Positions 3,450 to 46,785 of a DNA stretch of 64,000 nucleotides are shown piece after piece. The notes under the pieces are model-generated. The model saw only the letters and a list, made by a program, of their open reading frames with translations. It did not search any database and was not told the DNA's origin. Numbering within the stretch: position 1 is the first letter of the stretch; the number at the start of each line of letters is the position of its first letter. The DNA is from Gemmatales bacterium (GTDB taxonomy: Bacteria; Planctomycetota; Planctomycetia; Gemmatales; HRBIN36), in the NCBI GenBank assembly GCA_041640595.1, contig JBEPZY010000004.1, positions 162,373 through 226,372 on the forward strand. Direction: 5' to 3'. The translations under genes were made by a program, and so were the position numbers.

Positions 3450-3554
3450 GGGCTGCGTATTGGTAAGCGTGGCCTGTAGCGATCGTCATCGGGGGCACGC
3501 CTGTTTGCTTACCACGCAGGGCTGCGTATAAGTAAGAACGGCCGGTAGCGACCG
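3450..3554. repeat. Repeat-spacer-repeat unit (36 bp + 33 bp, period 69)
   Basis: gggctgcgtattggtaagcgtggcctgtagcgatcg at 3450 vs gggctgcgtataagtaagaacggccggtagcgaccg at 3519. Confidence 0.7.
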
Positions 3555-3682
3555 CGATAGTTGCATCTTCGCGGGTCGGTATGGCCGGACTCGAACAGCG
3601 AGTCGCCTGGTCGAACACATCTGCGGCATACAGGCAGCAGATTCGCTGCCTGGCCATTTACGGCAGTAACAAGGAGCATCGC

Positions 3683-4684
3683 GTGGTCAAACGCATTGCC
3701 GTCTTGGGCGATGGCGCGATGGGCATTGCCTGCGCCCTGATCCTGGCCTCGAAAGCGGAACTGCAGGTAACCGTGTGGAGTCCGGTAGAAGAATACGGTC
3801 GGCTGATTCAGCAAAAGCGTGAAAGTTTCCGTTATTTGCCGGGCGTCCCTATCCCGGAGCGTATCGGGCTAACACTGGATTTGTCCGAAGCGGCCACCGG
3901 GGCGGATTTGTTGCTGGTGGCCATTCCCACGGTGTATTTGCGAGCCACTCTGGAACGTGGTCAGGAGGTGCTGCGCCAGAATCGGTCGGCGGTGGTCAGT
4001 GTGATCAAGGGTTTGGAACAGAGGACGTTGTTGCGGCCGACGCAGATTATTGCGGAAATCCTCGGAGAGCGTCCGCTGGTCGTGCTGGCCGGGCCGAGTC
4101 ATGCTGAGGAGATCAGCCGCGGTTTACCGGCCAGTGTCGTGGCGGCCAGTCGGGACGCCTATTGGGCTGAGCAGGTGCAGCGTCTGTTCGGTACGGAGCG
4201 TTTCCGCGTATATACCAATCCCGATCCGGTAGGGGTGGAATTGTGCGGGGCGTTGAAAAACGTCATCGCCATTGCCGCGGGAATTTGTGATGGTCTGCAA
4301 CTGGGGGATAATGCGAAATCGGCGCTGTTGACGCGGGCGTTGGTGGAGATGGTGCGATTTGTCGAAGCTCATGGTGGGCGAGCGCAGACGGTTTACGGTC
4401 TGGCCGGTGTGGGCGACCTGATCACCACGTGCATCAGCGTGCACGGGCGCAATTTACGTGTCGGGAGAGAAATCGGTCGCGGCCGAAAACTCAACGAGAT
4501 TCTCGCCGACATGCAGCAAACCACAGAAGGGGTCTGGACTGCCCGAGCGGTTTACGAACGGGCCTGCCAGCTGGGTCTGGACATGCCGATCTGCACCGAG
4601 GTGTATCGGGTTCTGTACGAGCAGAAAGCTCCGCTGGCGGCTGTGCATGACCTGATGACGCGGGAAGCCGGCTCCGAGTATTAG
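3683..4684 (+). CDS. gpsA: NAD(P)H-dependent glycerol-3-phosphate dehydrogenase
   Basis: GDGAMG Rossmann motif, KGLE, GPSHAEE, GALKNVIAIAAG, GxGDLITTC, RN; GTG start at 3683 after AAGGAG RBS. Confidence 0.95.
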   Translation: MVKRIAVLGDGAMGIACALILASKAELQVTVWSPVEEYGRLIQQKRESFRYLPGVPIPERIGLTLDLSEAATGADLLLVAIPTVYLRATLERGQEVLRQNRSAVVSVIKGLEQRTLLRPTQIIAEILGERPLVVLAGPSHAEEISRGLPASVVAASRDAYWAEQVQRLFGTERFRVYTNPDPVGVELCGALKNVIAIAAGICDGLQLGDNAKSALLTRALVEMVRFVEAHGGRAQTVYGLAGVGDLITTCISVHGRNLRVGREIGRGRKLNEILADMQQTTEGVWTARAVYERACQLGLDMPICTEVYRVLYEQKAPLAAVHDLMTREAGSEY

Positions 4685-4791
4685 CAGTTTTGATGCTCGC
4701 AGGAACATTGTCTTGCCAAAATCGGCAAGCGATTTACAATCCGCTGGCGTAGTGGTCGTGTCGGTGTCTCGTCCGCCGGGGATTAGCGAGG

Positions 4792-4797
4792 TATAAT
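4792..4797 (+). promoter_or_regulatory. Putative -10 box (TATAAT) of clpC
   Basis: Perfect TATAAT about 85 bp upstream of the start; conserved in the duplicated copy at 36893-36898. Confidence 0.55.
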
Positions 4798-4879
4798 GCC
4801 AGTGAACGCAGCTTCCCGGAGCCAGGCGAGCGTGGGCCGGTTCGGGTCAGGCTGCGGATGAGCAAACAGGTGAACAGCC

Positions 4880-7405
<2,526 letters not shown>

Positions 7406-7469
7406 GCGGCACAATTCTCGCTGCATCGTACCACGCGACCGGAAGGTGAGTTTTCCGATCCCGCCCTGA

Positions 7470-7649
7470 CGGTCTGCGCAGCCCGCGCATGGATAGCTTA
7501 CCCACCGCTGAGTTGACCCTGAAAGACCGCGCCGTTCACTTGCGGTCTGCGCAGGCATCGCACGAATAGCTTACCCCTGTTCGGGAGCAACCACCTCGTA
7601 ATGAGGCGGTTCTCATAGTTTGCGCACCCCGCGCATGAATAGCTCACCC
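7470..7649. repeat. Mini-array: 3 x 34-bp repeats, 39-bp unique spacers, period 73
   Basis: cggtctgcgcagcccgcgcatggatagcttaccc (7470), cggtctgcgcaggcatcgcacgaatagcttaccc (7543), tagtttgcgcaccccgcgcatgaatagctcaccc (7616). Confidence 0.8.
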
Positions 7650-7659
7650 ATCTTCCGTA

Positions 7660-8385
7660 CAAGAGCGGGGAGCGTCAGCCCCCCGTGGGATACATCCGCC
7701 GTTGCGAATCGTAAACGCACATCGCAGGCGATGTGTCGCGCATGCAACCAAGAGCGGGGAGCGTCAGCCCCGCGTAGGATACATCCGTCGTTGCGAATCG
7801 GAAACGCACACCGCAGGCGATATGTCGCGCACGCAACCAGGAGCGGGTGGTGTAAGCCCCCCGTGGCACGCGAGCGTTCTCGTCCGGGCTAAAACGTGCG
7901 CTACTGCAAGTGCATTTCGTTCCCACGGCGGGCTGACAGGCGGCGTTCTTGTTAAAAAACCGCGCGCCACTTGCAGCACGTTTTTCCGAGCCACGGCGGG
8001 CTTACGCCGCGCTGCGCTTGTGCACAGCGTGCGTTCACCGACGATAGTCGCACTCCGTGCACCATCGTGCTTGTCGGGCCACGGCGGGCTTACGCCCGCC
8101 GCTCTTGTGAACGTGCGTTTGTGCATCGCAAAAGGCGTTATCTTTCCGGCCAACGGACGCCGTGCAGTGCACCAGGAGCGGGGGGCGTCAGCCCCCCGTG
8201 GGAAATATCCGCCGTTGCGAATCGGAAACGCACACCGCAGGCGATATGTCGCGCATGCAACCAAGAGCGGGGGGCGTCAGCCCCCCGTGGGAAACGTTCG
8301 CCGCTGCGAATCGGAAACGCATACCGCAGGCGATGTGTCGCGCATGCAACCAGGAGAGGCTGGCGTAAGCCAGGCGTGGGTGTGG
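7660..8385. repeat. REP/REPIN-like hairpin cluster 2 (about 9 copies; 89-bp sub-period)
   Basis: aagagcggggagcgtcagccccccgtgg-type copies at 7661, 7750, 7839, 8174, 8263, 8352 plus reverse copies. Confidence 0.9.
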
Positions 8386-8503
8386 TAGCGCGCCAGCAAT
8401 GCCCGATCGGGTGCGAGCAGCTTACTGATGCCCGCTATTGAAGAATTGCCGGTTTGTCGGTGAACGTGCATTTTTCGCGGCACGCCGGGCTGGGGTAACA
8501 CCA

Positions 8504-8784
8504 CGGCAGAGAGGCCGTGTAGCACGACCTCGACGTCCTCAGCGATCTGCTCACCACTGGGCAGCACCACCCCAGAGAGGCGTGTAGCACGACCTCGATG
8601 TCCTCAGCGATCCGCTCACCACTGGGCAGCACTACCCCAGAGGGGCCGTGTAGCACGACCTCGATGTCCTCAGCGATCCGCTCACCACTGGGCAGCACTA
8701 CCCCAGAGGGGCCGTGTAGCACGACCTCGATGTCCTCAGCGATTCGCTCACCACTGGGCAGCACCGCTCCAGAGAGGCCGTGTA
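8504..8784. repeat. 66-bp tandem repeat, about 4.2 near-identical units
   Basis: ccccagaggggccgtgtagcacgacctcgatgtcctcagcgatccgctcaccactgggcagcacta at 8635 and 8701, with variants either side. Confidence 0.9.
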
Positions 8785-8906
8785 CCTGGTTGACTTGTTC
8801 CGTCGCGTGAATTGCTGTTTCGAGGAGTTGGTGTTATGCCACGTCGAAGAAGCGGCGAGTCGTTGCCTTTTCCCGTTGCCCGAATCGCTGGCTCGGCCGG
8901 TTCGTG

Positions 8907-10061
8907 TTACGCCAGGCCGAAGAGGCGGCGGAAAAGACCCGGTTTGGCCGGCGGTTGGTTCGAGCCAGACTGGCTGGGTGCTGCACCGGATGTGGTGGGG
9001 CAGCTGGACGGATTGGCGGTGAAGTTCCCGCTTGCTGAATCGGATGCGATCGGAGCGACGGGACTAGTTTTCGGGTTGGCCATCGCGCCACGCGGACTGA
9101 TTGCCGGATCCGATGAGACCTGGCCGGCGGGAGTACCTTTCCGGTTGGGCAGCGAGCCAATTGTGTTCTCAGCCGCAACAGGATGCTGGGATGGGCAGGG
9201 CATCTGATCGGCTGAACTGACAAGCTGGCCCGGAGCGGAGGCGTTCGGGCCAGCATTCGGGGTACTCCCGCGCGCGCCAGGTGAGGTGGTGGGTTGCGCT
9301 GATCGGCTGGCGGAGGGCATCTCCGGCAGGCTGGGACGCGAGAGCGGTCGGCGCGACGGGCGTACTTCGCCGAAATAGCGGCGTTGTAACTCGGCATGCA
9401 GTTCGTACAAAGGCGCCAGCCGTTCCCGCAACGCAGCCTCCCGGGAGGCGATTTCCAGTTCGGTCTGGATTTGCTGATGCAGGCGTTGCAGTTCGTTCCG
9501 CTGCCGCGCCAGGTCAGCACGTTCCCGGGAAAGGGCCACTTCCATCTGCCGGATTTCGGCCATGAGTTGCTCTTCGTCGCGTTTGAGCTGTTCCCGTTCC
9601 CGCAGCAGTTCCTGTTCGAGTGCGAGGAGTTCCTCTTCGCGTGGAACACGGCGGTCGGGAGCGGGACGTTCTTTGGCCAGCTGCAGTTCCTGGTGAAGCT
9701 GACGGATGAGTTCGGACTTCTCCTCGAGGAGAGCTTCGTATTCCTGCTCACGTTGCCGCCAGCGGGCCGCTTCACGTTCCATGAGATTGAGTCGTTCGCG
9801 GGCCTGGTCGAGCAAAGTACGGAGGCGACGGTTTTCCTCTTCCAGTCGGGCCAGTTCCGCCGTCGGGTCTTTGGTCGGGGCGTTCGGCAACTTGTCCACC
9901 AGTGACAGAATCATGGCACTGCTGACGCCTGGTTCCTCGTCGCTGGCCGAAACCGGCTCGGCAGCATGTTCCGCATGGGCCAGCTCTGCCGACGTGGCCT
10001 GGCTCAGCTTATCGTTTTCCGACGCACGCCGTTCGTGGTTTACCGGAAGAGGCATCGCCAT
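8907..10061 (-). CDS. Coiled-coil protein with low-complexity Pro/Ser C-terminus
   Basis: Long E/R/L/Q heptad region; C-terminal amphipathic GLFRRLFG; ATG 10061 after GGGAG. Confidence 0.75.
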   Translation of the reverse strand: MAMPLPVNHERRASENDKLSQATSAELAHAEHAAEPVSASDEEPGVSSAMILSLVDKLPNAPTKDPTAELARLEEENRRLRTLLDQARERLNLMEREAARWRQREQEYEALLEEKSELIRQLHQELQLAKERPAPDRRVPREEELLALEQELLREREQLKRDEEQLMAEIRQMEVALSRERADLARQRNELQRLHQQIQTELEIASREAALRERLAPLYELHAELQRRYFGEVRPSRRPLSRPSLPEMPSASRSAQPTTSPGARGSTPNAGPNASAPGQLVSSADQMPCPSQHPVAAENTIGSLPNRKGTPAGQVSSDPAISPRGAMANPKTSPVAPIASDSASGNFTANPSSCPTTSGAAPSQSGSNQPPAKPGLFRRLFGLA

Positions 10062-11317: not shown

Positions 11318-11411
11318 GGCGCACGCTCCACGATGTGTTTGTGACTCTCTAAACTCGCTGGCGTTGCGACTACGCATTCAACAGGCGCGCGTTCCACGAT
11401 GGGTTTGTGAC
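11318..11411. repeat. Repeat-spacer-repeat unit (28 bp + 38 bp, period 66)
   Basis: ggcgcacgctccacgatgtgtttgtgac (11318) vs ggcgcgcgttccacgatgggtttgtgac (11384). Confidence 0.7.
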
Positions 11412-11449
11412 CCAGACCATGCGATTCGGCATCCTTCCACCCCGCAACC

Positions 11450-11632
11450 AAAAGCGGCGGGCGTTAGCCCGCCGTGGAACCGCCAGACAAACGAACGACC
11501 AAGCGAACGGATTACACGGACAACCAGAGCGGCGGGCGCTAGCCCCCCGTGCGACGCTCGGACACACCAACCGCAAAGCGGAAGGACTATGCGGACAACA
11601 AGATCAGCAACCGTCAGCCCGCCGTGGAACCG
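11450..11632. repeat. Three REP-containing 74-bp tandem units overlapping the TolC start
   Basis: REP cores near 11450, 11524 and 11598, with homologous linkers. Confidence 0.75.
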
Positions 11633-17370: not shown

Positions 17371-17393
17371 GCTCGATACGATTGGATGGTGGA

Positions 17394-18800
17394 ATGAGCC
17401 TGGATCGGCAATCGCTGCTGGACATCCTGACCTACGTTTTTTACGCCGGACTGGTGGCCGCCACGGTTCTGGTGGTGCTGGCTCCTTTTTTGCTGGGCGT
17501 GAAAGGCCGACGTTGCGTCAGTGCCGCCGTCCGCAGTCTCTGGCTGCACAAGATGCGGTCGTTTCTCTCGGTGCTGGGTATTATCATTGGCACGCTTTCG
17601 GTGATCGTTCTGATGGCCTTCGGCGAAGGGAGCATGCACGAGGCCCTGGAAGAGATCAAACGTCAGGGCGCCACCAACATTGTCATTACCAGTGTCAAAC
17701 CGCCGGAAGATTCCAGTGCGACGCGGCGATCCTTCGTGGCCCGCTACGGTTTGACCTACGACGATCTTCGCTATTATCAGGATGCCCTGGGCGAGCAAGT
17801 GGTTTCGATTCTGCCGTTGCGGATTATGTCGGCAGAGGTGCGACCGGTGCTGGCCGGCAATCGCATGATGACCTGCCGCGTGGTTGGTACCCGGCCGTAT
17901 TATGCCGTGGCATTTCAACTGGAAAACGCCCTGGCCGAGGGACGATTTTTGACCGAAGCCGATGAGACTCCCGTTCCCGCCAACGTCGCCGTGATTGGTT
18001 CCGATGTTGCCGCCACGTTGTTCCCTGGCGAATCGCCGCTGGGGAAAAGCATCAAGTTCAGTGGCAAAGATCGGGCCTTCGTGGTGGTCGGGGTTTTGAA
18101 ATCGCGCAGCCCCAGCACCAGCGGGGCCATTATCGAACAATTCAACTCCGACGTGTACATTCCCCTGGAAGCCTCGCGGGCCTTGCTCGGCGAAACCCAG
18201 TACGTGCGTACCACTGGTTCGCGCAGCGCGGAGCAGGTGCAGTTGCACCAGATCATTGTCACGGTGCGGGAGATGTCCCAGGTGCGTCCCACTGCCGACA
18301 TGATCCGCGAACAGCTCAGCCGCTACCATCTCAAATCCGATTGGGACATCAAGATTCCGCTCGACCGACTCGAACAGGCCGAACGGACCCGCACCCGCGC
18401 CCGTATTCTGCTGGCGGCCATTGCCGGGATTTCTCTGCTGGTCGGCGGCATCGGCATTATGAACATCATGCTGGCCAGCGTCACCGAACGCACCCGCGAA
18501 ATCGGTATCCGCCGGGCCCTGGGTGCCAAACGCGGCGATATTACCCTGCAATTCCTGACCGAGGCGATTGTGCAAACCACCGTCGGAGGCATCGTCGGAG
18601 TCGTTCTCGGTTTGCTGATCGTGCTGGTGGCTCCTCTGGTGGCCGAACGCTTCTTTGCCACCCATTTGCCTGCGAAAATCCACGTTCCCTCTATCTTCGT
18701 CGCCTTCTTCTTCGCCGTAGCAGTCGGTGTGGTGTTCGGATGGTACCCGGCCCGCCGTGCCGCTCACCTCGATCCCATCGAAGCCCTTCGCCACGAATGA
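17394..18800 (+). CDS. ABC transporter permease (MacB/FtsX-like)
   Basis: RSFLSVLGIIIG, GGIGIMNIMLASVTERTREIGIRRALGA, PARRAAHLDPIEALR. Confidence 0.95.
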   Translation: MSLDRQSLLDILTYVFYAGLVAATVLVVLAPFLLGVKGRRCVSAAVRSLWLHKMRSFLSVLGIIIGTLSVIVLMAFGEGSMHEALEEIKRQGATNIVITSVKPPEDSSATRRSFVARYGLTYDDLRYYQDALGEQVVSILPLRIMSAEVRPVLAGNRMMTCRVVGTRPYYAVAFQLENALAEGRFLTEADETPVPANVAVIGSDVAATLFPGESPLGKSIKFSGKDRAFVVVGVLKSRSPSTSGAIIEQFNSDVYIPLEASRALLGETQYVRTTGSRSAEQVQLHQIIVTVREMSQVRPTADMIREQLSRYHLKSDWDIKIPLDRLEQAERTRTRARILLAAIAGISLLVGGIGIMNIMLASVTERTREIGIRRALGAKRGDITLQFLTEAIVQTTVGGIVGVVLGLLIVLVAPLVAERFFATHLPAKIHVPSIFVAFFFAVAVGVVFGWYPARRAAHLDPIEALRHE

Positions 18801-18834
18801 TTCCGCAATGCCACGAACGGCGGCATCAGTTAGC

Positions 18835-19004
18835 CATGAAACGCGACCGTTTTCATTCGGGAAAAACTCATTTTCTCCACAACGTGCAGGTGAGGTCCTA
18901 TAGCATGAAACGTGACCGTTTTCGTTCGGGAAAACCCCGTGTGGTGGCGGCAGACACGCTTCCGAGCCACACATGAAATCCGACCGTTTTCGCTCGGGAA
19001 AAAC
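18835..19004. repeat. Mini-array: 3 x 33-bp repeats, 35-36-bp unique spacers, period 68-69
   Basis: catgaaacgcgaccgttttcattcgggaaaaac (18835), catgaaacgtgaccgttttcgttcgggaaaacc (18904), catgaaatccgaccgttttcgctcgggaaaaac (18972). Confidence 0.8.
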
Positions 19005-19029
19005 CCTCGCCGTTGCAACTGCCTCACTA

Positions 19030-25430: not shown

Positions 25431-25541
25431 GACGGGGTGACCTTCTCGCTGATCCGATCGCTGGGGACGTGCGACCATTCCAGACCGTGGTACAACAACC
25501 GTAAGGCAAAGTGGCGCTCTGGCTGATCGGATCGCTGGGAA
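25431..25541. repeat. Degenerate repeat-spacer-repeat unit (37 + 37 bp, period 74)
   Basis: gacggggtgaccttctcgctgatccgatcgctgggga (25431) vs ggcaaagtggcgctctggctgatcggatcgctgggaa (25505). Confidence 0.6.
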
Positions 25542-28204: not shown

Positions 28205-28270
28205 TGAGATCATGGTGCCGAAGAGCATCGGTCGAACATCGAAAGCAGGCGGGCAAACGGAACACGGCGG

Positions 28271-30652: not shown

Positions 30653-30731
30653 CACCCTCGGCGACTGGCAGACCGGCAGGAAACCGGATTCGCCCAAAAA
30701 ACGTCATTCGCGGTGCACATACGCACATTCA

Positions 30732-31633: not shown

Positions 31634-31748
31634 TTTGGTAACGGCCCGCGCTTGCAGGGCATAGCGAACAATTTTCGGCGAACACCGCCCGCCGTGCGAC
31701 GGGAATCGCGCCGGCAGCAGCAATGCCGCAACTTTCCGAACACCGTCT

Positions 31749-32078
31749 TCATCCATCAGGCGCAGCGGGCGTTACTGAAGGTGGAGTCCAGCGCATCAGC
31801 CACCACAGGGCCAGCCCGTGACCCAGCACCAGTGCCCAGGGGATGCTCGAATCAATCCAGGCCGGTCCTAGCCAGCTGTTGAGCCAGCGAGCAACCACCA
31901 GGGCATCGTACAGGGCCAGTTCGAAGTAGGCAAAAATCGAAACCAGGCCAAGCAACCGCCAGACGGTCGGCCAGAAGGGTAGCATCAGGCCCAATGCCAC
32001 TATCACGTCGTAGGCCGTCCAGCTCCACTGGACTGCGGGTCGGTCCAGCCAACTGCTGGCCAGAGCACTACGTGGCAC
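31749..32078 (-). CDS. Small hypothetical membrane protein
   Basis: 109 aa, three hydrophobic segments. Confidence 0.5.
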   Translation of the reverse strand: MPRSALASSWLDRPAVQWSWTAYDVIVALGLMLPFWPTVWRLLGLVSIFAYFELALYDALVVARWLNSWLGPAWIDSSIPWALVLGHGLALWWLMRWTPPSVTPAAPDG

Positions 32079-32439
32079 TCACCCACTGCCGAAGCAAACG
32101 GCCTGCTCGGCTGGCGAACCACACCAACGGATTACCTGACCGCTGATGCGCATCCCCGCACCAAACATCAACCACGCTACGACCGGTAATACCCACCAGC
32201 GAGTTTGCTGCCAGCGCAAGTTCGGCTCCTTACATCGGTGGGAGTTGGCTTTCCGAGCCCTTGGCTCTGCCGGGCATCATTCGCGTCGTCGAAAGTACCG
32301 AGGCTTCGCGGTTACGAAATCGCCAGGTGTCCCGCTACTCGATCAGATGCGTGCGTTCACCGGGATTGCTCGACCGCACCCGCCGCGATGGTGGTTATTC
32401 CGTGGCCGGTCAAATTTCGTCCGCGGCCTGGCTACGCTC

Positions 32440-34053
32440 TCAGCCGCCCAATGCCGCACGGGCACGCTGAATGAGTTGATTATCGCGGTGGCTGGTGCCT
32501 TTGAGATTGAAAAGGCTGGCCGCCAGGAAGCGGTTTCGCCAAACCGGACTGGCGTGGAAGAAATCTTCCAATGCCGCCGAGCTGAACTTGTAATCGTGGG
32601 AATCGAAACCTTTGGCGAAAATCAACCGTCGTGCCGTGGCGATCAGAGCCACCGGGTCCACGACATTTTGCTGCAACGCGGTAAGGGTCTTGCGAGCCGC
32701 CAGCAGCGTATCTTTGCCCACGAGATCGAAAATCTCCTCGACGGCATCGGTGCCGGTTTTGGTCAGCGGAGCCGGTTCCAGTTCGTCCAGCCGCAACGCT
32801 TCGTTGAGTTTGCCCCGTTGCCGCATCGCCTCGCGGAACATGGCCAGGAAGGCCGCGTTTTGCAGCAGAATGTAGCGCCGATGCTCGTCCACACCGCTGT
32901 TTTGAAAGGCGAAGTGCATGGCGTTGGTCATGGTGACGCAATGCAGACCGACGATGCCCGGCTGGCGTGCCAACCATTCGCCCGCACACAGGAACAGGCC
33001 ATCGTAAATCGACTGCGGACTGATCCCAGCGTTGAGCAATTTCACCACGTACGCACTGGCTTCCTCCGCGTCGGCGCTACGCAGCACCTGCACCAGTTCT
33101 GCCGCGGCCTTGGCATCGGGCCGACCGGCATACCAGTCCGCACGAATTTCCCGGATTCGCTCCCGATTGCGGCGACCGGGCCGATCCGCCGGAAGGTCGT
33201 TTTGCGCTGGATTGGGATCCCGACCGCGGTCGAGCAAGGCATACGCTAAGGAACGCAGCACCGGTTCGGCATAACGCCAGCCGATCACCTGTAAAGTTCG
33301 CCAGGCGTTAGCAGCGTAAATGATTTTGTGGCCAATGTCACGGAAATCCCGCACTGCCAGCCGCCAGAAACACTCACTGATCTCTGCCTGCCCGGCCGAA
33401 CGCGCTAAGACCGTGATTGCCCGATCCGCCTCTTCCTCATCCCAGGCTTCCATAGCCTGGAGGAAACGTTCCCTGGCCCGTTCCGGCGGCGGCAACCGCT
33501 TGTCATCGGCAGGAGGCAGACGCCAATCCCCTTCGACGCGGTTCCTTTCCTGGGCCACCTTGAAATAGTCCAGCGCCCAGAACAGCGGCAGCCAGCGATC
33601 GCGGTCACTGGAAGCCATCGCCGCCAGATGCGCCGAATTGACCACCAGAACCGCGTGAAATTTATATCCGACCGGACGCGGTTGTATGCCGCGCACCCCT
33701 GCCAGCATCAATGCCGCCAGCCATTGCTGATAGCTCGTCCCCGCACGGATACGTTCAGCGACTACCTCCAGCAAGCGGTCTCGCGGAGTTTCTTCGATGA
33801 GCCGAACCAGCGGTTCCACCTCGGCAGGATATTGCACCATGGGGCGAACGATCTGCGTTTGCTCCGCCGACACCGCCGGTAACCGGCTCAGAAAATCCAG
33901 CCCGATTAGCCCCACCGCACTACCCAGAAACTCCCGTCGGGCGATTGCCACCCGTCCGAGTTCGCCATGCGACGGTACGCTCCCTGACGTGCTGCTTACC
34001 GGAAACTCACGTTGCACCATCCCCGCTACCGTGTTCCCGACGGACCTGCTCAT
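32440..34053 (-). CDS. Conserved hypothetical helical protein with Tat-like leader
   Basis: RREFLG motif plus AxA; repeated His motifs (KFHAV, IGHKI, GLHCV, DSHDYK). Confidence 0.8.
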   Translation of the reverse strand: MSRSVGNTVAGMVQREFPVSSTSGSVPSHGELGRVAIARREFLGSAVGLIGLDFLSRLPAVSAEQTQIVRPMVQYPAEVEPLVRLIEETPRDRLLEVVAERIRAGTSYQQWLAALMLAGVRGIQPRPVGYKFHAVLVVNSAHLAAMASSDRDRWLPLFWALDYFKVAQERNRVEGDWRLPPADDKRLPPPERARERFLQAMEAWDEEEADRAITVLARSAGQAEISECFWRLAVRDFRDIGHKIIYAANAWRTLQVIGWRYAEPVLRSLAYALLDRGRDPNPAQNDLPADRPGRRNRERIREIRADWYAGRPDAKAAAELVQVLRSADAEEASAYVVKLLNAGISPQSIYDGLFLCAGEWLARQPGIVGLHCVTMTNAMHFAFQNSGVDEHRRYILLQNAAFLAMFREAMRQRGKLNEALRLDELEPAPLTKTGTDAVEEIFDLVGKDTLLAARKTLTALQQNVVDPVALIATARRLIFAKGFDSHDYKFSSAALEDFFHASPVWRNRFLAASLFNLKGTSHRDNQLIQRARAALGG

Positions 34054-34381
34054 GGCCAGCCCTCCTCTTTCGGAAAATCCTACCGTTGTAACAACCGACG
34101 CTGCCGGCAGCTAATCTATCAGTTTTCCAGCCACCGGCGAGTGCCCCACCGCAAGACCGAGACGCTCGCATCAGCCCCATGCCCAATCGCAACTGGTTCC
34201 CTGTATTGTCGGGTGCGCGAGTTTCAATGGCCTAATGCTCAATCGCAGTTGGCTCGCGGACACGTGCCGCAATGACTACGCTCGAGCAAACTCACGATTT
34301 GGCCAGCGCTGGACAGGTTCGGTAGCCCTGATCTCGACGGAAGCACGCCACCGCGGCGAAACCGCATCGGCGTACGAAACC

Positions 34382-34617
34382 GCCTGGTTCACCGTATCGG
34401 CGTTGCTTTTGGACTTCGCGGACGCTCACAAGTGCATGCCCGTGGTTGTTCTGGTTCGCAGTATCAGCGCTTTGCCCGGACTTCAGCAACCCTCGCAAGC
34501 GGATGCGCATTGTCGGCCTGGTTCATCATCGGTGTTCCATCCGCAGTCCGCGAACACAACCTCGATGCTGATCCGAACAGAGCCTCGTTCATCATCGGCG
34601 TTACACCCGCAGCCCGC
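34382..34617. repeat. Degenerate mini-array, 4 repeats, period 66-67
   Basis: gcctggttcaccgtatcggcgtt (34382), ttctggttcgcagtatcagcgct (34449), gcctggttcatcatcggtgttccatccgcagtccgc (34516), gcctcgttcatcatcggcgttacacccgcagcccgc (34582). Confidence 0.65.
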
Positions 34618-34730
34618 TCATTTCCACAACGGTTCGCCCGGCGCGCGACCTATTTTCGGACAATCGCCCGGTAAGGTGGATTTTCTCTCCAAGCCGCGGC
34701 ATCGGCTACCGTGTCCAGGCTGACAAGCCG

Positions 34731-34828
34731 GTTGCATGACTCCTGCACACTGGATTTGTTCGCATCAGCGCGACCGGCAGCACAACGTCCGCAACAAGTT
34801 GCATGAACCCTGCACGCAGGGTTTCTTC
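34731..34828. repeat. Repeat-spacer-repeat unit (31 + 36 bp, period 67)
   Basis: gttgcatgactcctgcacactggatttgttc vs gttgcatgaaccctgcacgcagggtttcttc. Confidence 0.7.
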
Positions 34829-34923
34829 ACCAGCCGAACGGGCCGGCAATACGCCGCCGCGTGTCCTCTGGTGAACTTGCGCTGCGGGCCAGTTTTTTCG
34901 CCGGTCGTAAGCATCACCGGCCT

Positions 34924-36810
34924 TCATTGCAACGGAGCAAATCCGAGCGAACCGCCGCCCAGTAACCGCGCCCCGAGCCGACCGCTCTGGTGGAGCATTT
35001 CTTCCAGTGCCTTCTGGACATCGGCCAACTGGAGTGTTCCGGTACCGCCTTCGCTGACGTGAAACTGCCACGCCCGACGCATCAGTTCCTTGATAAATGC
35101 AGCACTAGCCTGGTTAGTCCGCCGAACAATTTCTTCCAGCACCGCTTCCGGTATCGAGAGCCCGCGGCCATACAGTTGGGCCAGTCTTCTGCGGCAGTCT
35201 TCGTCCGGCAGGGGAAATTCGATTGCCTGATCGACACGCCCGGGCCGGGCTGCCAGGGCTTCCTCCAGAACCTCGGGCCGGTTCGTGGTCAATATGAACA
35301 ATATCTCGTTATCTTCGCCGATACCGTCCATCTCGTTGAGCATGCGATGGAGCAGCGGCAGGCTACTGCCTGGAAAGTCTCTATCTTCGCCTATCAAGTC
35401 CACGTCCTCAATAACGACCACTGCCGGCTGGAGTTGTCGGGCGAGGTCAACGTAGGCATCGAGGTAGGCCATCTGCTCCGCACGCACCAGCGCCACGGTT
35501 TGTCCCAGTTTCGTCAACTCGCTGATGAGATAGGCAATGGTGTGGGTTTTTCCGGTACCCGGAGGCCCGTAAAACAAGACGCCTTTCTTTACGTGCAGGT
35601 TCCAGTTTTTCAACTGTTGCCGATGGGCAACGAAGCCGAGAACATTTCGCTCGATTACTTCCAGCACCTTGTTGGGCAGAATTACTTCCTCGCGTCGTAC
35701 ATTCGGCACGTCGTGAACCTTGATATGCACGCCTGGACTGCCGAAAAACTCCACGTCCTTTTCCAGCGAAAGCACCTTCGTCCGATAAAAAGGCGATTGC
35801 TTGGCCGCCTCGCGGATGCGGTTGATCAAACTGGAAACCGTTTGTTCCACTTCCGGAGTATTGGGGCCGGCCAGCTGCAACGACACATGCACATCGCCGA
35901 ACCAGGAAGTGCCCATCATCAACATCGCCAGGGGATGCTCACCAACGCGCAGCAGCCACAGGCCATTCTTGACAAACCGCGCTTCCGCATCCTTGCCAAT
36001 GTTGATATGCTCGTACTCGATAGTACCGTAATTCCAGCGGTCTTTACCAGACGCTCCGAGCAGTTGGCTGAAGTTGACTTCCCTGAACAGTTCAATTGCC
36101 CCTGCAATTCTTCCCCTGGCACTACTCACACCCACGCACTGGATTATTTGGGCCTCCTTCTGCAGAACAGCGTCCAGCGCGAACTGGAGATTGGCGCGTA
36201 AAAAATAGGGGAAACGATACACCTGCACGGAAATGTCATTGACATCCCGCACACCCAGATGGTTCATCACCAGCCGTCTAAGGGATTTGGACCGGCCGGC
36301 ACCAGCGGCGGTGCTGCGCTCGCCTCCACTTTCCACCGGATCAGCAGTCATATCGTCCCTCAGTAAATTCAGGACCTCCTCGCGGACTTCTCCCAGGCGC
36401 AGACCCAGGTTCCGCAGTACCTGAGCGGCCACTCCTTCCTCTTCACGCAACAGGCCCAGTAACAAATGTTCGGTGCCGACGTAATTGTGATTGAGATTGC
36501 GGGCCTCTTCGATGGCATACTCGATGACTTTCTTAGCTCGGGGCGTGTACGGGAGTTTCCCCATGGTCACCATTTCGGTGCCGCTTTGCACCAGCCGTTC
36601 CACCTCCTGGCGAACCTTCTGCAGGTCCACGTCCAGATTTCTCAGGACGTTGGCGGCGACGCTCGCACCTTCTTTCACCAATCCCAGCAGAATGTGCTCC
36701 GTGCCGATGTATTCGTGATTGAAGCGCTGGGCCTCTTGTCTGGCCAGTTTCAACACCTTGCGAGCGCGATCCGTAAACCGTTCAAACATGCGTCCTTCAC
36801 TCATGCTCAT
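34924..36810 (-). CDS. Chimeric ClpC N-domain / classic single-ring AAA ATPase
   Basis: First about 175 aa nearly identical to ClpC; then GPPGTGKT, VVVIEDVD, LNEMDG, TTNRPEVLEEALAARPGRVD (second region of homology). Confidence 0.88.
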   Translation of the reverse strand: MSMSEGRMFERFTDRARKVLKLARQEAQRFNHEYIGTEHILLGLVKEGASVAANVLRNLDVDLQKVRQEVERLVQSGTEMVTMGKLPYTPRAKKVIEYAIEEARNLNHNYVGTEHLLLGLLREEEGVAAQVLRNLGLRLGEVREEVLNLLRDDMTADPVESGGERSTAAGAGRSKSLRRLVMNHLGVRDVNDISVQVYRFPYFLRANLQFALDAVLQKEAQIIQCVGVSSARGRIAGAIELFREVNFSQLLGASGKDRWNYGTIEYEHINIGKDAEARFVKNGLWLLRVGEHPLAMLMMGTSWFGDVHVSLQLAGPNTPEVEQTVSSLINRIREAAKQSPFYRTKVLSLEKDVEFFGSPGVHIKVHDVPNVRREEVILPNKVLEVIERNVLGFVAHRQQLKNWNLHVKKGVLFYGPPGTGKTHTIAYLISELTKLGQTVALVRAEQMAYLDAYVDLARQLQPAVVVIEDVDLIGEDRDFPGSSLPLLHRMLNEMDGIGEDNEILFILTTNRPEVLEEALAARPGRVDQAIEFPLPDEDCRRRLAQLYGRGLSIPEAVLEEIVRRTNQASAAFIKELMRRAWQFHVSEGGTGTLQLADVQKALEEMLHQSGRLGARLLGGGSLGFAPLQ

Positions 36811-36957
36811 GGCTGCTCACCTGCTTGCTCATCCGCAACCCGACCGGAACCGGCCCATGCTCCCCTGGCTCCGGGAAGCTGCGTTTAGTCGCATTATACC
36901 TCGCTAATCCCCAGCGGACGAGACGCGACACATCCACTACGCCAGCGGATTGTCAAT
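36285..36957 (-). repeat. Inverted copy of the clpC promoter and 5' coding region (4731-5405)
   Basis: Reverse complement aligns from gatt(g/t)acaatccgctggcgtagtgg through gtgccggccg(g/a)tccaa with scattered substitutions. Confidence 0.95.
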
Positions 36958-37074
36958 CTGGCTGATCCCCAGTTTGGTTCGACGCAGGGGATTTCCCAAC
37001 ATATGGCCGGACAACGGCTGACGAATAGTCCCATTTTTTCAACCTCGGGCACCGCACGCCCACATCGTTGCCGC

Positions 37075-37175
37075 GTTCAGGACCGAACAGCACGACCTTT
37101 TTCTCCGCTTAGATGCTCATGCGACGCGCTGCGAAGTACCTGTTCAGCACCGAGCAGCACAACCTTTTTGTCCGC
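37075..37175. repeat. Repeat-spacer-repeat unit (34 + 33 bp, period 67)
   Basis: gttcaggaccgaacagcacgacctttttctccgc vs gttcagcaccgagcagcacaacctttttgtccgc. Confidence 0.8.
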
Positions 37176-37414
37176 CTCTGGCTGACCGCACGCTCACATC
37201 GGCGCAGTGTTCAGCCAAGACGATTGCGGCCCATTGCGTGGCTAGCAGTCGGCGGCCCTTTGCCAAAACCTGACGAAGCTAAGGCAGACCTTGCGCGTTC
37301 CAAACGCCCCCCTAGCAAGCACTCGCGGTCCGTAGGCTGGTCCGGTACCAGCCGTAGGCAGGCCTCGCGTGTTCCAGGTGCCCCCGAACAAACAGGCGAC
37401 CCGACGTAACCGTT

Positions 37415-37750
37415 ATGACCCCCATGCCTTACCTCCAGCGGAGCCCCCGTCAAAACCGGCGACGAACCAGACCGTGCATGAGCGCCGCTTGGCAAATTAA
37501 CCAGCAGCAATATCAGGCAGTAATCAACCGGTTTAACAGGGACGCAAACAATCCACCTAATTACAGTGTCTTCGACTATAATTGTACGAACTGGGCATTC
37601 GATGTGCTCAATCGGGAAACTCATATCCGCTGGAGGCCCCAACTTGTACAGGAGCGTGTAACAGGCAGGTGGTTGTTGGCACCAGCTCAAGTCGGTGTAG
37701 AATTGCGCAGGAATCCAGTACCACAAAACGGGATAGGGTTAGAACCCTAA
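37415..37750 (+). pseudogene. C-terminal fragment of a permuted papain-like (NC-motif) putative toxin
   Basis: YSVFDYNCTNWAFDVL resembles the Y...NCxxW/F motif of PPPDE/LRAT-like enzymes; no credible N-terminus. Confidence 0.45.
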
Positions 37751-37782
37751 GCAATGAAAAGTCCATGCGAGGGAGAGCAAAC

Positions 37783-39078
37783 ATGACCAGGTCTCACCGA
37801 GTGGTGAAGCTGGCGGTCTTCTCAATGTTCGCGGCTGTCCTGGGAGGGATAATTAGCATGTCGCTGGCGGCTAGAAAAATCTCCGTTCTTGGAGACCTCG
37901 AGGACTGTGCACACGTAAGATTGTCTTTGCAAGATGGCCAGGTTCGAGTGCACGCTATAGAACCCTCAGGCCGGTTACTCATGCTCGACTTGAAGACTAA
38001 GGAAATCAAAAAACTGAGGGTAAAAGATTTAGAACTTGACGGCACGCAGCACATCTCCGTCGGAGGCCTGTTTGCCCCTATGAGTCCAACTCATTACGGT
38101 GTTAGAGCTCCAGATTCAAGCTTAGTCAACCTTTTTGTCGTGAGGGGAGCCGGTGAGGATTGCCAAACCTGGCTAGTTGATTTAGATACTGGAGCCGCCG
38201 TACTTCGACTCGAGGGTGGCTGGTACTGCTTGCCTACCGGCGATGGGATCTACGTTGTCTGGTCAGGCGAGCGAATACCTGGAAAAACGAAGCAGGAGTA
38301 TATTATCTATCGCTATGCAAATGCTAGGTTAGAAAAATTCTCGTCCTGGCAGCCTGATTTACCCATACAGAGTATTCTTTTTGCTCGATCACACGGAAAC
38401 TCGATTCGTATAGTTTGCGAGCGTCTCGTAGGAGAGAATCAAGGTACCCAACACAAGGTCGGGCAATTAGGACAAGCTCGTGCTATTTATCTCATAGATT
38501 TAGAAACACAGACAGCCAGAGTCCTGAGGTCTAAAAAGGTATTGGAGCTAAAACGCACTCCAGGCCGTGACAAGTCCTGGCCTTCAGCAGCAGTCTTCCC
38601 CGCACCATCGCCTGATAGCGTCTATATATACGAGCCTCAGAATCGTTCTCTCTATCTTTTTGACTGGAAGACGCTCCAAATGATTCGTGAGTTAAAACTG
38701 CGGATTCAAAAGAACTCAGAGGATAATGAATGGGAGCTCATTCCCTTCTTTATTATCCATCCTAATAAACCTCTGGCATTGCTGGTGTTTCCTATGGGGT
38801 TCGTATATCTGTTAGACTTGTCAGACGGTAGCCTTCGCCTATTGGGCGATGAACATTTCAAGAAGTTAAATCAATTTGTCATGACGCGCAGCCAGGAAGA
38901 GCCACTGGTTGGGTTAGCGGCAGTGCATTTTATGATGAAAGATGGAGTTTTCATGCCTAACGAGAATCAGGTGGTTGTAGTCGCGGGTTCTGGACATGTT
39001 TATATTTACAACTTAGCGCAGTCCAGACTGGACGCAGTTTTTCGTCTGACAGCAGAAGACCTCTTCGAACGCAAATAA
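37783..39078 (+). CDS. Exported beta-rich (propeller-like) protein, putative immunity
   Basis: Signal/TM N-terminus; repeated YLxDLxxG blades; directly after the toxin-like fragment; ATG 37783 after GGAG. Confidence 0.65.
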   Translation: MTRSHRVVKLAVFSMFAAVLGGIISMSLAARKISVLGDLEDCAHVRLSLQDGQVRVHAIEPSGRLLMLDLKTKEIKKLRVKDLELDGTQHISVGGLFAPMSPTHYGVRAPDSSLVNLFVVRGAGEDCQTWLVDLDTGAAVLRLEGGWYCLPTGDGIYVVWSGERIPGKTKQEYIIYRYANARLEKFSSWQPDLPIQSILFARSHGNSIRIVCERLVGENQGTQHKVGQLGQARAIYLIDLETQTARVLRSKKVLELKRTPGRDKSWPSAAVFPAPSPDSVYIYEPQNRSLYLFDWKTLQMIRELKLRIQKNSEDNEWELIPFFIIHPNKPLALLVFPMGFVYLLDLSDGSLRLLGDEHFKKLNQFVMTRSQEEPLVGLAAVHFMMKDGVFMPNENQVVVVAGSGHVYIYNLAQSRLDAVFRLTAEDLFERK

Positions 39079-43675: not shown

Positions 43676-43791
43676 TGTTCCTCCTTATTGCAGAATCAAT
43701 ACAGTTTAGGCGTGCACATCCCGATCTTGTTCCCGCTCAAATGTGGCCTTGCCAGTAGAATCCGCGCAGGTAAATTATCTTGTGTGTGTCT

Positions 43792-44574
43792 TTATTCTCC
43801 TTTCCTAATAAGCTTCTCTAAACGCCAATCCTTCGAGTTCTTGCCAGAGGTAGAAAGTTCAATGACGTAGGGGCCGCACCCTGCAACAAGCGTCCATTTT
43901 TCGTCCTTGAAGTGCAGCGCGACGATTCTGATGTCCTTTGTGAGCAATTGCCTAGCGGCCTCACGACCTAGAGCTTCTGTCAATTTTTCCTTTAAAGGTA
44001 CCTGATGGTCAGGGATAGTAGTAAAGTTTTTCCATTCGGATAACCTATAGTGTACGCCCAGCTTGTCGTACGAGGCTGGTCGAGGTGGCAGGGGATCCAT
44101 GTGCGACTGATTAAGGTTAATGCTATAAAACGCTAAACAGGGTTTTTCTTCTCCTGGCAATGCGAAAACAAGCTCAAACAACCCTTCGTTAGACAGGCTA
44201 GCTTGAAACCCATAAGGGGCCTTCTTTGGTTCTGTGAAGTCTCTATCGCCAAACCTGGCTGTCCAATTAACTGACCGCACTCTGCTTTTGGAGTCCCGCA
44301 ACTGATCTAGTATTTCGACGTATAGCCTGATCCAGACATCTTTATAAGAGACGTTCGGGGGCGCCCCAAAGTCGTGCTCGACACGAATTTTCTCCCAGCC
44401 AACTTCGGCCACTTGATGCGCAGCTATGCGCACGCTCAAGACCTTGTGTGGGCCATCCTGATTGGCTTGCGTTGACACGGCATTATTCGAAGTGAGCAGC
44501 AGGACAGTTCCAAATAAGGACAAATATGCCTTTATTGGGTTCATGGAATTCACCCTCACGTTAGTGGAAATCAT
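43792..44574 (-). CDS. Exported hypothetical protein, putative immunity to the transglutaminase-like toxin
   Basis: Signal peptide; immediately downstream of the toxin C-terminus. Confidence 0.65.
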   Translation of the reverse strand: MISTNVRVNSMNPIKAYLSLFGTVLLLTSNNAVSTQANQDGPHKVLSVRIAAHQVAEVGWEKIRVEHDFGAPPNVSYKDVWIRLYVEILDQLRDSKSRVRSVNWTARFGDRDFTEPKKAPYGFQASLSNEGLFELVFALPGEEKPCLAFYSINLNQSHMDPLPPRPASYDKLGVHYRLSEWKNFTTIPDHQVPLKEKLTEALGREAARQLLTKDIRIVALHFKDEKWTLVAGCGPYVIELSTSGKNSKDWRLEKLIRKGE

Positions 44575-44610
44575 TTATCAGTTACTGCAGACTATCTAAG
44601 CAATCTACCA

Positions 44611-46171
44611 TTAGCCTACCTGCACGAAGACGATCTCTAAAATGGTCGGGTCATTTTTCTTAGCCCGCAATCCCGCTGGGAAAACGTATACGAAACCATC
44701 CAGAGCAGCGTTCTCCCACTCATTTTTCCGTGCTGTATGGTCCTCCGCCATAAGAAGGATCATAATAGGCATCTGCAACCCGCACGACGAAATGATTTGC
44801 AAAAGCGGAAGGTGGATCGGGATTGCCTTGTCCCGGTACCCCCGCTTTTGGCTTAACTTCGGAGACCGTCGGGTCATCCAAATCTATTATATATGTGTAG
44901 GGACTAGTCGCTGGAGAACCGCCTGCGCCGTTGAATTCCCAGTTCTTGACCAGCATACCTGTTCGCCACGGTAGGGCATATAGTCCGGTGACTGGGTCTA
45001 TGGGTTGGTCAGCACTAAATACCATGAATTTTCTAGCCCCCTGAACGCTTATGGCCCCGTAAGTATCTATCAGCAACTCGGCCCAGGAGCCGCACTGGCC
45101 GTTTGCGTGGGCTAAAAGTTGCTGTGTGTTGACCGCAGTGGCCCTGCCGCCAGCCCAGTACCTCAATTGAGTGTCATCCACACGACGGACTTCCCGATCA
45201 GTGAAATCACTCCAAATTGCTGAGATAACATCTGATTCGTTTGTTTTGCCGTCAGCGTTCTTCGAGCCCAGATGCACCAGGGTATGGTATAAGTTTACCC
45301 CTGGTTTGAGGGCAGGGTCGGCAAAAGTAAGGTACAAAGGATTTGGCGTCGACCCCGCCTTCGTCCAGGTTGAGTTGGCGCGCTGGCTGTCGGAGGTGGC
45401 TTGCCAGTCCAGCCTGAAGAGATTTGCACCAACGTAAGCTTGCACCACATTCGGAAATGCCACCGGCGACTCCGTTACGTCAAGCACGAGTTCAGTCGGG
45501 TTCGTCGGGTCGACGCGCACAGCCTTCGGCCCTACGTGAATCTGGAATCCCGTCGCAGGGTCCGCCGGCCCCGTCGCCATCACATAAATCGGGCCGCCAC
45601 CCCACGCAGTATCTAAGACGAACCGGGCACTCACTTTCAACGTTGTACCCCGGGTGTAAGCGTATGGCCAGCTATGCTCATCCGCATCCTCCGCATCCCC
45701 GTCTAAGTTTTTGTCCAACCAGTGTTCCGAACTATAGGCCACGTCGGGAGCTATTACTCCAGTCGGGTCCAGCTCCGGGTCCCGGTACACGGTATGCCCG
45801 CCGCTGAACGTTACCGACCGGATACCAAGGATTTTAGCCGTGTGAACAACGACCGTTTGCGTCGCCTCGGCAACCCCATCACTAACGGTGTACGTGAACG
45901 AGTCGTCCCCAGTGTGTGGAGCATCTGGCCGCTCGACTGCATAATAAACAAAATCACCGTTGGGATTCATCACCAGCTGAGCACCGGATGGTAGTCGCAT
46001 CAACTGCCGCGGTGGCTGATCGTTAATCTTGACCACGCGTAAGCTATCGCCATCGGCGTCAGTATCGTTCGCCAGGACGTTTCCCCGAACGGCACTCCCC
46101 GCCAGGACGTAATACTCGTCATTTACAGCCTCCGGAGCAGTGTTATGAACAGCAATCCAAGCCACAGCCAT
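44611..46171 (-). pseudogene. Ig-like repeat + transglutaminase-like (Cys-His-Asp) putative toxin; 5'-interrupted, probable frameshift near 44725
   Basis: GNVLANDTDADGD..DSFTYTVSDG; GQCGSWA, NHFVV, YYDPSYG; EWENAALDGF tail lies in another frame. Confidence 0.7.
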
Positions 46172-46317
46172 TTGTCGGAACTAGAGAATTCATTTGCCAA
46201 CCAGAGAGGAGCAGTGTTATGAACAGTGTCCAAGCCATAGCCACTGGGATTGTTAACAGTGAGTTTATTATACTGGTAGTGGAGCAGTGTTATGAACGGT
46301 GATCCAAGCCATAGCCA
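46134..46317. repeat. CRISPR-like mini-array made of duplicated coding sequence: 3 x 36-37-bp repeats, 2 x 37-bp spacers
   Basis: ggagcagtgttatgaac...tccaagcca(c/t)agcca at 46134, 46208 and 46281; encodes AMAWITVHNTAP on the minus strand. Confidence 0.9.
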
Positions 46318-46785
46318 GGCCTAAAGCTATACCATCCGTAAACCCAAATACAAAAGCATCGGTGCCAGTATAACCAGCCGCCGGTGTATATCTAAACCTG
46401 CCATCATCATTCAATACCACCGTGCCATTCGTCGGAGCGGAGATTAGTTGCGCCGAGAAAACGCTGGGGCTTGAAAGCATTGGCACGGTGATAGCGTCGC
46501 CGTCCGGATCGTAGCCGCAGAGCTGGCCGACCAACTCGCGGTCGTGCAATACACTGAAACTCTGCATGGCGCCCAGCTGGGCAGACCTCCACCTATAGTA
46601 GCCGGTCGGTTTGTGATCATCCAATACGCTGAAGCTGGCATCGTAGGCATACGGCGCGTTGTTATAAACATCTATCACGACAGTGGCCGTGTTGCCGGTG
46701 GTCAGCCCATCCGACCAGGTGTAGGTGAAACTATCCGTACCGACGTAGTGCGTGTTCGGTGTATACGTGAAGCTGCCGTCGGGAA
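46268..46785 (-). pseudogene. Ig-like (Big_9) 5' arm of the transglutaminase cassette, carrying insertions
   Basis: PDGSFTYTPNTHYVGTDSFTYTWSDG..IDVYNNAPYAYDASFSVL[75-bp insert]HDRELVGQL..DAIT[33-bp insert]AQL. Confidence 0.75.

Follow-up and report, generated by a model that had tools for sequence, protein, structure and literature searches.

Scattered repeat-insert-repeat units in a Gemmatales genome: probable scars of off-target spacer integration by two CRISPR adaptation modules

Why would a bacterial genome carry, mostly between its genes, direct repeats laid out like single CRISPR units, each with a repeat sequence of its own? The question is raised by a 64,000-nt stretch (hereafter the window) of a Gemmatales bacterium, positions 162373–226372 of contig C4 in assembly GCA_041640595.1, a genome of 4.45 Mb in 42 contigs (G000 below, its contigs being C1, C2 and so on). 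A first-pass annotation of the window had listed 13 loci at which a direct repeat is interrupted by an unrelated insert. Our analysis indicates that each such unit is very probably the scar of a full-site spacer integration, made outside CRISPR repeats by a Cas1–Cas2 integrase.

The listed loci were re-scored locally without gaps, comparing the best period with other periods. At 12 of the 13 the best period was 66–69 or 73–75, with scores of 14–33, against mostly 7–10.5 at other periods (a single 14 stems from an adjoining 20-bp tandem at 3367). These 12 are clear; the thirteenth, at 46526, is weak, with a score of 10 (23/37 matches by eye) that lies within background. An independent repeat search of the window recovered eight loci (3446, 7470, 18835, 27957, 28092, 30542, 34516 and 46131), with repeats of 24–40 nt and identities of 79–95%. 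In the aligned window loci the intervening sequence is unrelated to the repeat copies and, as first annotated, there is no shared consensus: the repeat is different at every locus.

Period classes and resident arrays

For each period between 15 and 300, the whole genome was catalogued for direct repeats agreeing at 23 or more of 26 positions (the strict scan). With CRISPR arrays included, hits numbered 251 at period 66, 169 at 67, 154 at 73, 174 at 74 and 125 at 75, most neighbouring periods giving about 20 or fewer (with a shoulder of 43 at 76), and harmonics appeared at two, three and four times both peaks. Two giant CRISPR arrays account for most of these raw hits. After leaving out canonical-like repeats, runs of N, array regions and contig C20 (a small variant-repeat array), and keeping only duplications of 22–46 nt, 256 units remained at periods 65–69 and 72–76, of which 199 were intergenic; slightly different de-duplication gives 257 (130 and 127 in the two classes). 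Control periods (n = 52) gave a mean of 1.27 units each, 0.87 of them intergenic, a background that implies about 13 false units in the 256. The two tight period classes seen in the window therefore hold genome-wide, where the distribution is sharply bimodal and not flat. Relaxed thresholds returned more units with a higher background, above all at periods divisible by three. Periods 72–76 are called the 37-nt class here, and periods 65–69 the 30-nt class.

The genome holds two large CRISPR arrays:

Array A, C1:359749–377934: 247 repeats of 37 nt, ending ATTGAAAC; spacers of 36–38 nt, mode 37.
Array B, C8:3–21080 (running off the contig start) and C10:65236–66999: 317 and 27 repeats of 30 nt, the reverse complement of the repeat ending ATTGAAAC; spacers of 36–37 nt, mode 36.

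Cas1 was matched by Pfam at two places, one adjoining each array, with a Cas2 match near each. By NCBIfam, the module beside array B (module B) comprises Cas2, a type I-B Cas1, Cas4, Cas3, Cas5 and Cas7, followed by Cmr1–6 (type III-B). The module beside array A (module A) comprises Cas2, a separate group-II-intron-like reverse transcriptase (a 550-residue open reading frame, ORF) and Cas1; upstream of these are housekeeping genes, and effector genes are absent. Reverse-transcriptase-associated CRISPR adaptation modules are a known type, to which module A, with its 247-repeat array, corresponds. At the leader end of array A (C1:359749–360700) adjacent spacers overlap in sequence, so that next to the reverse transcriptase the same short targets were sampled more than once.

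The lengths within the scattered units are those of the arrays. In the 37-nt class, the modes are 36–38 nt both for the duplicated segment and for the insert; in the 30-nt class, the duplicated segment is mostly 28–31 nt, with its maximum at 30, and the insert 36–37 nt. In both classes, the duplication equals the length of a resident repeat (37 nt in array A, 30 nt in array B) and the insert that of the corresponding spacers, so that array unit sizes of 37 + 36–38 and 30 + 36–37 equal the two period classes. The cas1, cas2 and arrays of matching unit size that the first-pass annotation had looked to are thus present twice over, each module adjoining its giant array. Because two size pairs are matched, a single process of one fixed length would not suffice.

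On this reading, an integrase loaded with a 36–38-bp prespacer would attack both strands of ordinary DNA one repeat length apart, the Cas2/reverse transcriptase/Cas1 module spacing its attacks by 37 bp and the type I-B Cas1–Cas2–Cas4 by 30 bp. Gap repair would then double the stretch between the attacks, leaving local sequence (30 or 37 nt), spacer and the same local sequence again. Site choice would be loose, with G preferred at the attacked base, and a few sites would be struck again.

Empty sites and the origin of the inserts

The genome is rich in dispersed repeats, and each unit with its 150-nt flanks was compared with the rest of it. At many paralogs, left flank plus duplicate and duplicate plus right flank map with an overlap of about the duplication length. 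Paralogous empty sites were found for at least 10 loci, in addition to window locus 37075. Explicit alignments at five of them, C9:75166 (three paralogs), C10:64668, C3:419213, C3:358949 (two paralogs) and C5:180131, show paralogs in which the segment is single and the insert missing. Insert-free copies lie, for instance, at C9:102820–103086 and C1:12199–12487. At 37075, the window carries a 134-nt insertion (2 × 67) relative to paralogs at C9:75230–75430 and C2:27990–28212, placed at 37082–37215 or 37070–37203 by a global alignment with cheap long gaps. By eye, this appears to be two successive insertions of the 30-nt class, the second offset from the first.

These sites bear on the idea that the units are what is left of numerous different, genuine CRISPR mini-arrays, horizontally gained or decayed from larger arrays, each with its own repeat family. 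Small arrays do occur in this genome: C3:328836–328932 holds two array-B repeats around one 37-nt spacer, remote from cas genes, the spacer matching contig C15 at 91%, and a small array built on a variant 30-nt repeat is found on contig C20 (1207–1584). At the paralogous empty sites, however, the ‘repeat’ is native single-copy sequence. Repeat lengths copy both resident systems, no repeat family is common to the loci, and the shared repeat and many units of a working array are not seen: when units are chained into 238 loci, 224 have a single insert. We regard mini-array remnants as exceedingly improbable.

Another reading is that the units are decayed tandem duplications of 66–75-bp stretches, produced by slippage or unequal crossing-over, with the insert as the faster-decaying half. 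A true full tandem of similar period does lie in the window, where 8499–8784 holds 4.3 copies of a 66-bp unit with 94% matches across the entire unit and is no scar of the repeat-insert-repeat kind (perhaps a unit was amplified there, or the repeat is part of a coding sequence), and protein repeats of 22–25 residues produce matches at periods 66, 72 and 75. The inserts of the catalogued units behave otherwise. Compared with the sequence one period away on either side, they show an identity of 0.285–0.287, against 0.267 in a control five periods away (254 units), and at one period it exceeds 0.7 in none of the 254. Asked whether they are decayed copies of their flanks, the inserts thus prove unrelated to the sequence one period away, and the homology across the whole unit that marks a tandem repeat or minisatellite is absent. 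Slippage, moreover, predicts neither two fixed periods nor duplications measuring exactly 30 and 37 nt, and the paralogs reveal clean foreign insertion plus one extra target copy. Tandem duplication is accordingly an extremely unlikely source of the units.

If the inserts are captured spacers, some might share sources with the arrays. Outside the arrays, 34 of the 588 array spacers match the genome, nearly all of them on C15, and a more sensitive search matched C15 with 36 class-B spacers and 1 class-A spacer. The C15 protospacers have 5'-CCN upstream in 29 of 37 cases and are divided 32 to 5 between the strands. The matching spacers come mostly from the leader-proximal end of array B, which we read as recent primed adaptation. 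C15 itself (1–9585) is a 9.6-kb contig with a GC content of 0.50 whose ORFs are nearly all orphans: one has an M10 peptidase domain and one a sub-cut-off Pfam match to the protein-primed family-B DNA polymerases (E = 8e-4). PHROGs returned no match for the 9 ORFs of C15, and a phage database none for C15 or for window positions 27950–28210. Probably C15 belongs to a virus or plasmid that lives in this host and was co-assembled with its genome.

Several inserts of the scattered units lead to such sources. The insert at C2:174386 agrees with the array-B spacer at C8:12371 at 30/31 positions, starting 2 nt later and differing at one base, which marks it as a separate capture from the same target. 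C15 is matched by the inserts at C2:407699 and C3:561426, a locus present as two paralogous copies. Three self-derived inserts of the 30-nt class (C2:136237, C3:484583 and C3:643266) have CCG or CCC by the protospacer, as judged by eye in one orientation. Inserts of the 30-nt class have a GC content of 0.545, close to the 0.551 of array-B spacers and below the 0.583 of their own flanks (p = 2e-5 vs flanks). The insert of 37-nt-class unit C9:139927 matches the type I-B cas1 gene (C8:23069–23092) at 23/24. On the proposed check of spacer source and common PAM (protospacer-adjacent motif), a few inserts agree with the arrays, namely those with the C15, array-B spacer and CCN matches; about 8 of the 257 inserts are informative.

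The first-pass annotation had also offered an undescribed fixed-length DNA-capture activity. Such an activity, tied perhaps to a reverse transcriptase or a mobile element and agreeing in size with CRISPR by coincidence, would suit the fact that most inserts are of no known source, and off-target integration is argued here from sequence. Against it stand the two independent size pairs (30 + 36–37 and 37 + 36–38), both matching resident arrays, and the inserts with a CCN PAM or a source in common with array spacers. Unlike a mobile element, too, the inserts share no sequence among themselves apart from duplicated loci. We consider this alternative highly unlikely, and it is not needed to explain the units.

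Placement, re-use of sites and the units of the window

Intergenic positions account for 200 of the 257 units; another 30 straddle the end of a gene, and the remaining 27 fall within predicted genes. By a crude codon-usage gene finder 80.8% of the genome is coding, so four fifths of the scars occupy the non-coding one fifth. Loss of in-gene hits by selection, with scars surviving chiefly in non-coding DNA, would produce this excess. The suggestion that the activity acts as a mutagen holds only partly: the scars exist, but 200 of 257 are in non-coding DNA. There is no preference for intergenic regions facing gene starts or gene ends.

Density varies along the genome (mean 5.8 units per 100 kb, contigs 0–18; C2 11.4, C1 2.2, C6 none). 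Regionally it co-varies with a REP-like hairpin family (34% vs 21% within 1 kb). Direct adjacency to these elements was considered and rejected: one lies within 100 bp of 5% of units, compared with 13% of randomly chosen intergenic positions. The REP-like element is G+C-rich, with a core like GAGCGGCGGGCGTCAGCCCGCCGTGG, and occurs in 89–93-bp tandem units, hence the 88–93 peak in the period histogram, and in higher-order repeats of 190, 286 and 305 bp. About 986 copies exist genome-wide, 940 of them intergenic and very unevenly spread (C2 364, C1 53, C7 0); in the window they lie at 2061–3288, 7660–8381, 11449–11629, 19034–20300, 22077–23001 and 30901–31635.

One clear target signal was found, a G at the edge. 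Read 5' to 3' on either strand, duplicated segments begin with G in 42/92 and 44/88 cases (86/180 strand ends overall), compared with 29% G in the genome, and G-first/C-last outnumbers C-first/G-last by 86 to 49. An orientation-free expectation-maximisation motif search of 46 and 45 well-measured units gave no strong position, total information being slightly above random (5.5 vs 4.3 ± 0.3 and 5.7 vs 4.1 ± 0.3). Target sites bear little resemblance to the resident repeats (mean 11.9/30 vs 11.0 for random intergenic DNA, and 13.7/37 vs 13.5), and the folding energy of duplicated segments, compared as a test of hairpin preference, is that of random intergenic DNA (p = 0.9 and 0.38).

Copies are identical over the canonical length in only 9 units (3 and 6 by class), the mode being 2–5 differences; this divergence marks the majority of scars as old, and older ones still fall below the detection threshold. 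Some sites have been used again. Fourteen of the 238 loci hold several inserts, and in 12 of these the inserts are unrelated (best identity at most 0.45; longest such chain, 3); these 12 strict loci, with two or three inserts each, include 18835. The other two are amplified copies, such as C8:39397 (five units, 0.97 identity). There, at C8:39397–39800 and about 16 kb from the cas locus, the five 74-bp units have inserts that alternate between two sequences, and we read the locus as a two-insert scar amplified by tandem duplication. A neighbour lies within 200 bp for 21% of loci, against 8 ± 2% under random intergenic placement, the neighbour pairs being 23 of mixed class and 13 and 8 of the same class. 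Since in-register repeat hits are not explicable by random placement, either some sites are preferred or a hit improves the target.

The units of the window are as follows:

3446–3485 / 3515–3554: period 69, class uncertain; 32/40 identical (80%), insert 3486–3514 (29 nt); between a predicted gene at 554–1870(-) and a gpsA-like gene at 3581–4684(+).
7470–7503, 7543–7576, 7616–7649: two-insert unit, 37-nt class, periods 73 and 73; 34-nt repeats, inserts unrelated; begins 65 nt past the stop of a ClpB/ClpC-like gene, 4880–7405.
11318–11345 / 11384–11411: 30-nt class, period 66; 25/28, insert about 38 nt.
18835..19006: two-insert unit, 30-nt class, copies at 18835, 18904 and 18972 (31–35 nt), periods 69 and 68; begins 35 nt past the stop of a MacB/FtsX permease gene, 17382–18800.
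25431..25541: decayed unit, 37-nt class, period 74; best stretch 25444–25465; immediately upstream of a DUF1549/DUF1553 gene, 25564–27834.
27957–27994 / 28032–28069: young unit, 37-nt class, period 75; 36/38 (95%), core 32/32, insert 37 nt; intergenic.
28092–28130 / 28166–28204: 37-nt class, period 74; 36/39 (92%), insert 35 nt; only 23 nt from the unit at 27957.
30542–30578 / 30616–30652: 37-nt class, period 74; 34/37 (92%), insert 37 nt; at or upstream of the 5' end of an M20 peptidase ORF, 28861–30576(-), whose Pfam domain begins only at residue 230.
34382..34480: decayed unit, 30-nt class, period 67; score 14.
34516–34551 / 34582–34617: period 66, absent from the first list; 31/36 (86%), insert about 30 nt.
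34731–34761 / 34798–34828: decayed unit, 30-nt class, period 67.
37070..37215: compound locus, 30-nt class; inner duplication 37075–37108 / 37142–37175, 30/34, period 67.
46131..46314: two-insert unit, 37-nt class, copies starting at 46131, 46205 and 46278, periods 74 and 73; duplicated segment about 37 nt with a 1-nt indel (by eye).
46526..46637: doubtful unit, period 75; about 23/37 matches.

The strict catalogue contains 6 of the 13 listed loci, together with 34516 and the second unit at 18904; the remaining seven, inspected as alignments, are more decayed than its threshold. A relaxed scan (at least 21/30) suggests further decayed units near 8786–8862, 9032–9094, 28197 and 37272. Three repeat copies around two unrelated inserts are present at each of 7470, 18835 and 46131, and the duplications at 27957 (38 nt), 28092 (39 nt) and 30542 (37 nt) fit the 37-nt repeat length; these three are also the youngest of the window. 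All window units are intergenic or at a gene end, and their neighbours are ordinary genes: glycerol-3-phosphate dehydrogenase, the ClpB/ClpC-like ATPase, the MacB/FtsX permease, ribosomal protein S1, the M20 peptidase and the DUF1549/DUF1553 protein, of a kind typical of Planctomycetota. The aspartyl-tRNA synthetase of G000 finds its best matches in genomes of that phylum, at 55–65% identity. Rfam found no family in the window.

From 38000 to 64000 the G+C content of the window falls from about 0.60 to 0.49–0.53. This part carries cadherin-like/Big_9 adhesin genes (44720–46171, 50763–53504 with 267-bp repeats, and 59878–62091) and a phage-integrase-family gene (54022–55779), and is probably an acquired island.

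Relatives, strains and known off-target integration

Four relatives were put through the same scan in samples of 373–400 kb each, about 10% of each genome:

G002, same genus: one Cas1 with a module-A-like score, adjoined by a 37-nt-repeat array; 3 clean units in 373 kb (periods 74, 76, 76), none at 65–69.
G003, same genus: two Cas1 (477- and 352-residue frames), like those of modules B and A; 2 clean units in 376 kb (period 74).
G004, same family: one Cas1; 1 clean unit in 376 kb (period 75, 38 + 37).
G010: no Cas1 (genome 96% complete); 0 units in 400 kb.

These samples only suggest that G000 is exceptional in scar number, because its own contigs range from 0 to 18 units per 100 kb. The G003 sample consisted of its 20 longest contigs, and long contigs of a fragmented assembly avoid repeats.

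The stretch was also sought in public sequencing runs; at least 20 contain it, the 20 listed being all metagenomes, mostly from hot springs or microbial mats, and those ranking below the first two contain 0.53–0.66 of its sampled words. Contigs from the runs tend to end at duplications. Those of runs X3 and X13, from strains about 1–2% diverged that hold 0.60–0.66 of the stretch's sampled words, span 34708–35409 gap-free, so the unit at 34731 is common to these strains and older than their split.

Several observations weigh against integration by the resident modules as the source of the scars. The link to these integrases runs through geometry and a handful of inserts, the roughly 8 of 257 with an informative match to an array spacer, C15 or a plain protospacer; of the 27/257 inserts with any match elsewhere in the genome, most belong to duplicated loci and one to a repeated element. 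Inserts of the 37-nt class show no GC difference from their flanks. The 27 units wholly inside predicted coding sequence include protein repeats of 22–25 residues, for example in leucine-rich-repeat-like genes on C2, and in the window the geometries of 3446 (40 + 29) and 34516 (36 + 30) fit poorly. Empty sites are known from paralogs within the genome, orthologs being alignable only in coding DNA: same-genus genomes are 70–78% identical, alignable in genes only, and have their flanking genes on different contigs. No skip of 65–76 nt occurs among the 15 joints listed, of 96 in all, from contigs of four runs across window positions 18001–38000, and the one metagenome contig compared, 99.99% identical to the window, holds no empty allele. 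Finally, G003 carries both Cas1 types and shows no 65–69 unit with an unrelated insert in its 376 kb, its single period-67 match being a full tandem repeat; this counts against a simple rule of ‘module present, scars present’. Set against these points are the geometry, the two modules, the paralogous empty sites, some spacer sources and PAMs in common with the arrays, and the samples of relatives (1–3 clean units each where Cas1 is present, none in the Cas1-less one), and with them the proposal of off-target spacer integration by two adaptation modules is supported.

Off-target integration as such is already a known process. Nivala, Shipman and Church (2018, Nat Microbiol 3:310) reportedly observed it in Escherichia coli over-producing the type I-E Cas1–Cas2, where it gave ‘neo-CRISPR’ loci. 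Three accounts (PMC7054753, bioRxiv 10.1101/148544, PMC6698737) describe this non-canonical integration; according to bioRxiv 10.1101/148544, evidence for natural occurrence was circumstantial, in two other species, and its frequency unclear. In the E. coli neo-CRISPR loci, as in our units, ordinary DNA is duplicated over one repeat length around an insert the size of a spacer, through the action of the integrase outside an array; those loci have been proposed as a source of new arrays. Here, by contrast, the events are natural, fixed and mostly old, with about 240 in one genome; the integrases would be two others, the I-B enzyme with Cas4 and the reverse-transcriptase-linked module; and at 12 loci there are two or three inserts unrelated to one another.

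In vitro, the Cas1–Cas2 of Pyrococcus furiosus makes opposite-strand attacks 30 bp apart at non-CRISPR DNA, with guanine preferred at the attacked base (PMC6698737). The 30-bp spacing and the G (86/180 strand ends here) are common to both. That work used plasmids in the test tube and found several repeat-like internal bases, whereas similarity to the resident repeats is weak in our units. Ectopic spacer acquisition inside arrays is described for Streptococcus thermophilus and S. mutans (PMC7999890 and PMC8265633): there too the integrase misses the leader-proximal repeat, but the events use a true in-array repeat, whereas the targets here are unrelated DNA. A full-text literature search, which did not cover the 2018 paper, listed no report of off-target genomic scars for a reverse-transcriptase-linked module and no account of genome-wide natural scars of this kind. 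The novelty lies in the scale reached in nature, in a module linked to a reverse transcriptase and in sites that were struck more than once.

By an arithmetic estimate, some 240 scars add up to roughly 18 kb, which is about 2% of all non-coding sequence. That off-target integration is a standing genome-shaping process in this lineage, and a natural birth route for arrays with new repeats, is a possibility that we advance tentatively. The two unrelated integrases may need little beyond a set spacing of their attacks and a G where each strand is attacked, and sites once hit may tend to be hit again, in register or nearby. Given the repeat-hit sites at 7470, 18835, 46131 and 37075, some could be nascent arrays able to become functional; the idea that the activity seeds new arrays is borne out in so far as sites are hit two or three times, while no neo-array is shown to work.

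Integration specificity is usually studied in a few model systems, by over-expression or in vitro. A wild genome such as this one offers a long natural record of the misses of two integrases, in which ruler lengths, attack-base preference, PAM retention and re-hits can be read, and a natural case attributable to a reverse-transcriptase-linked module. It bears on the cost of adaptation to the host, as the non-coding excess would follow if in-gene hits were removed, and on the origin of CRISPR arrays with new repeats.

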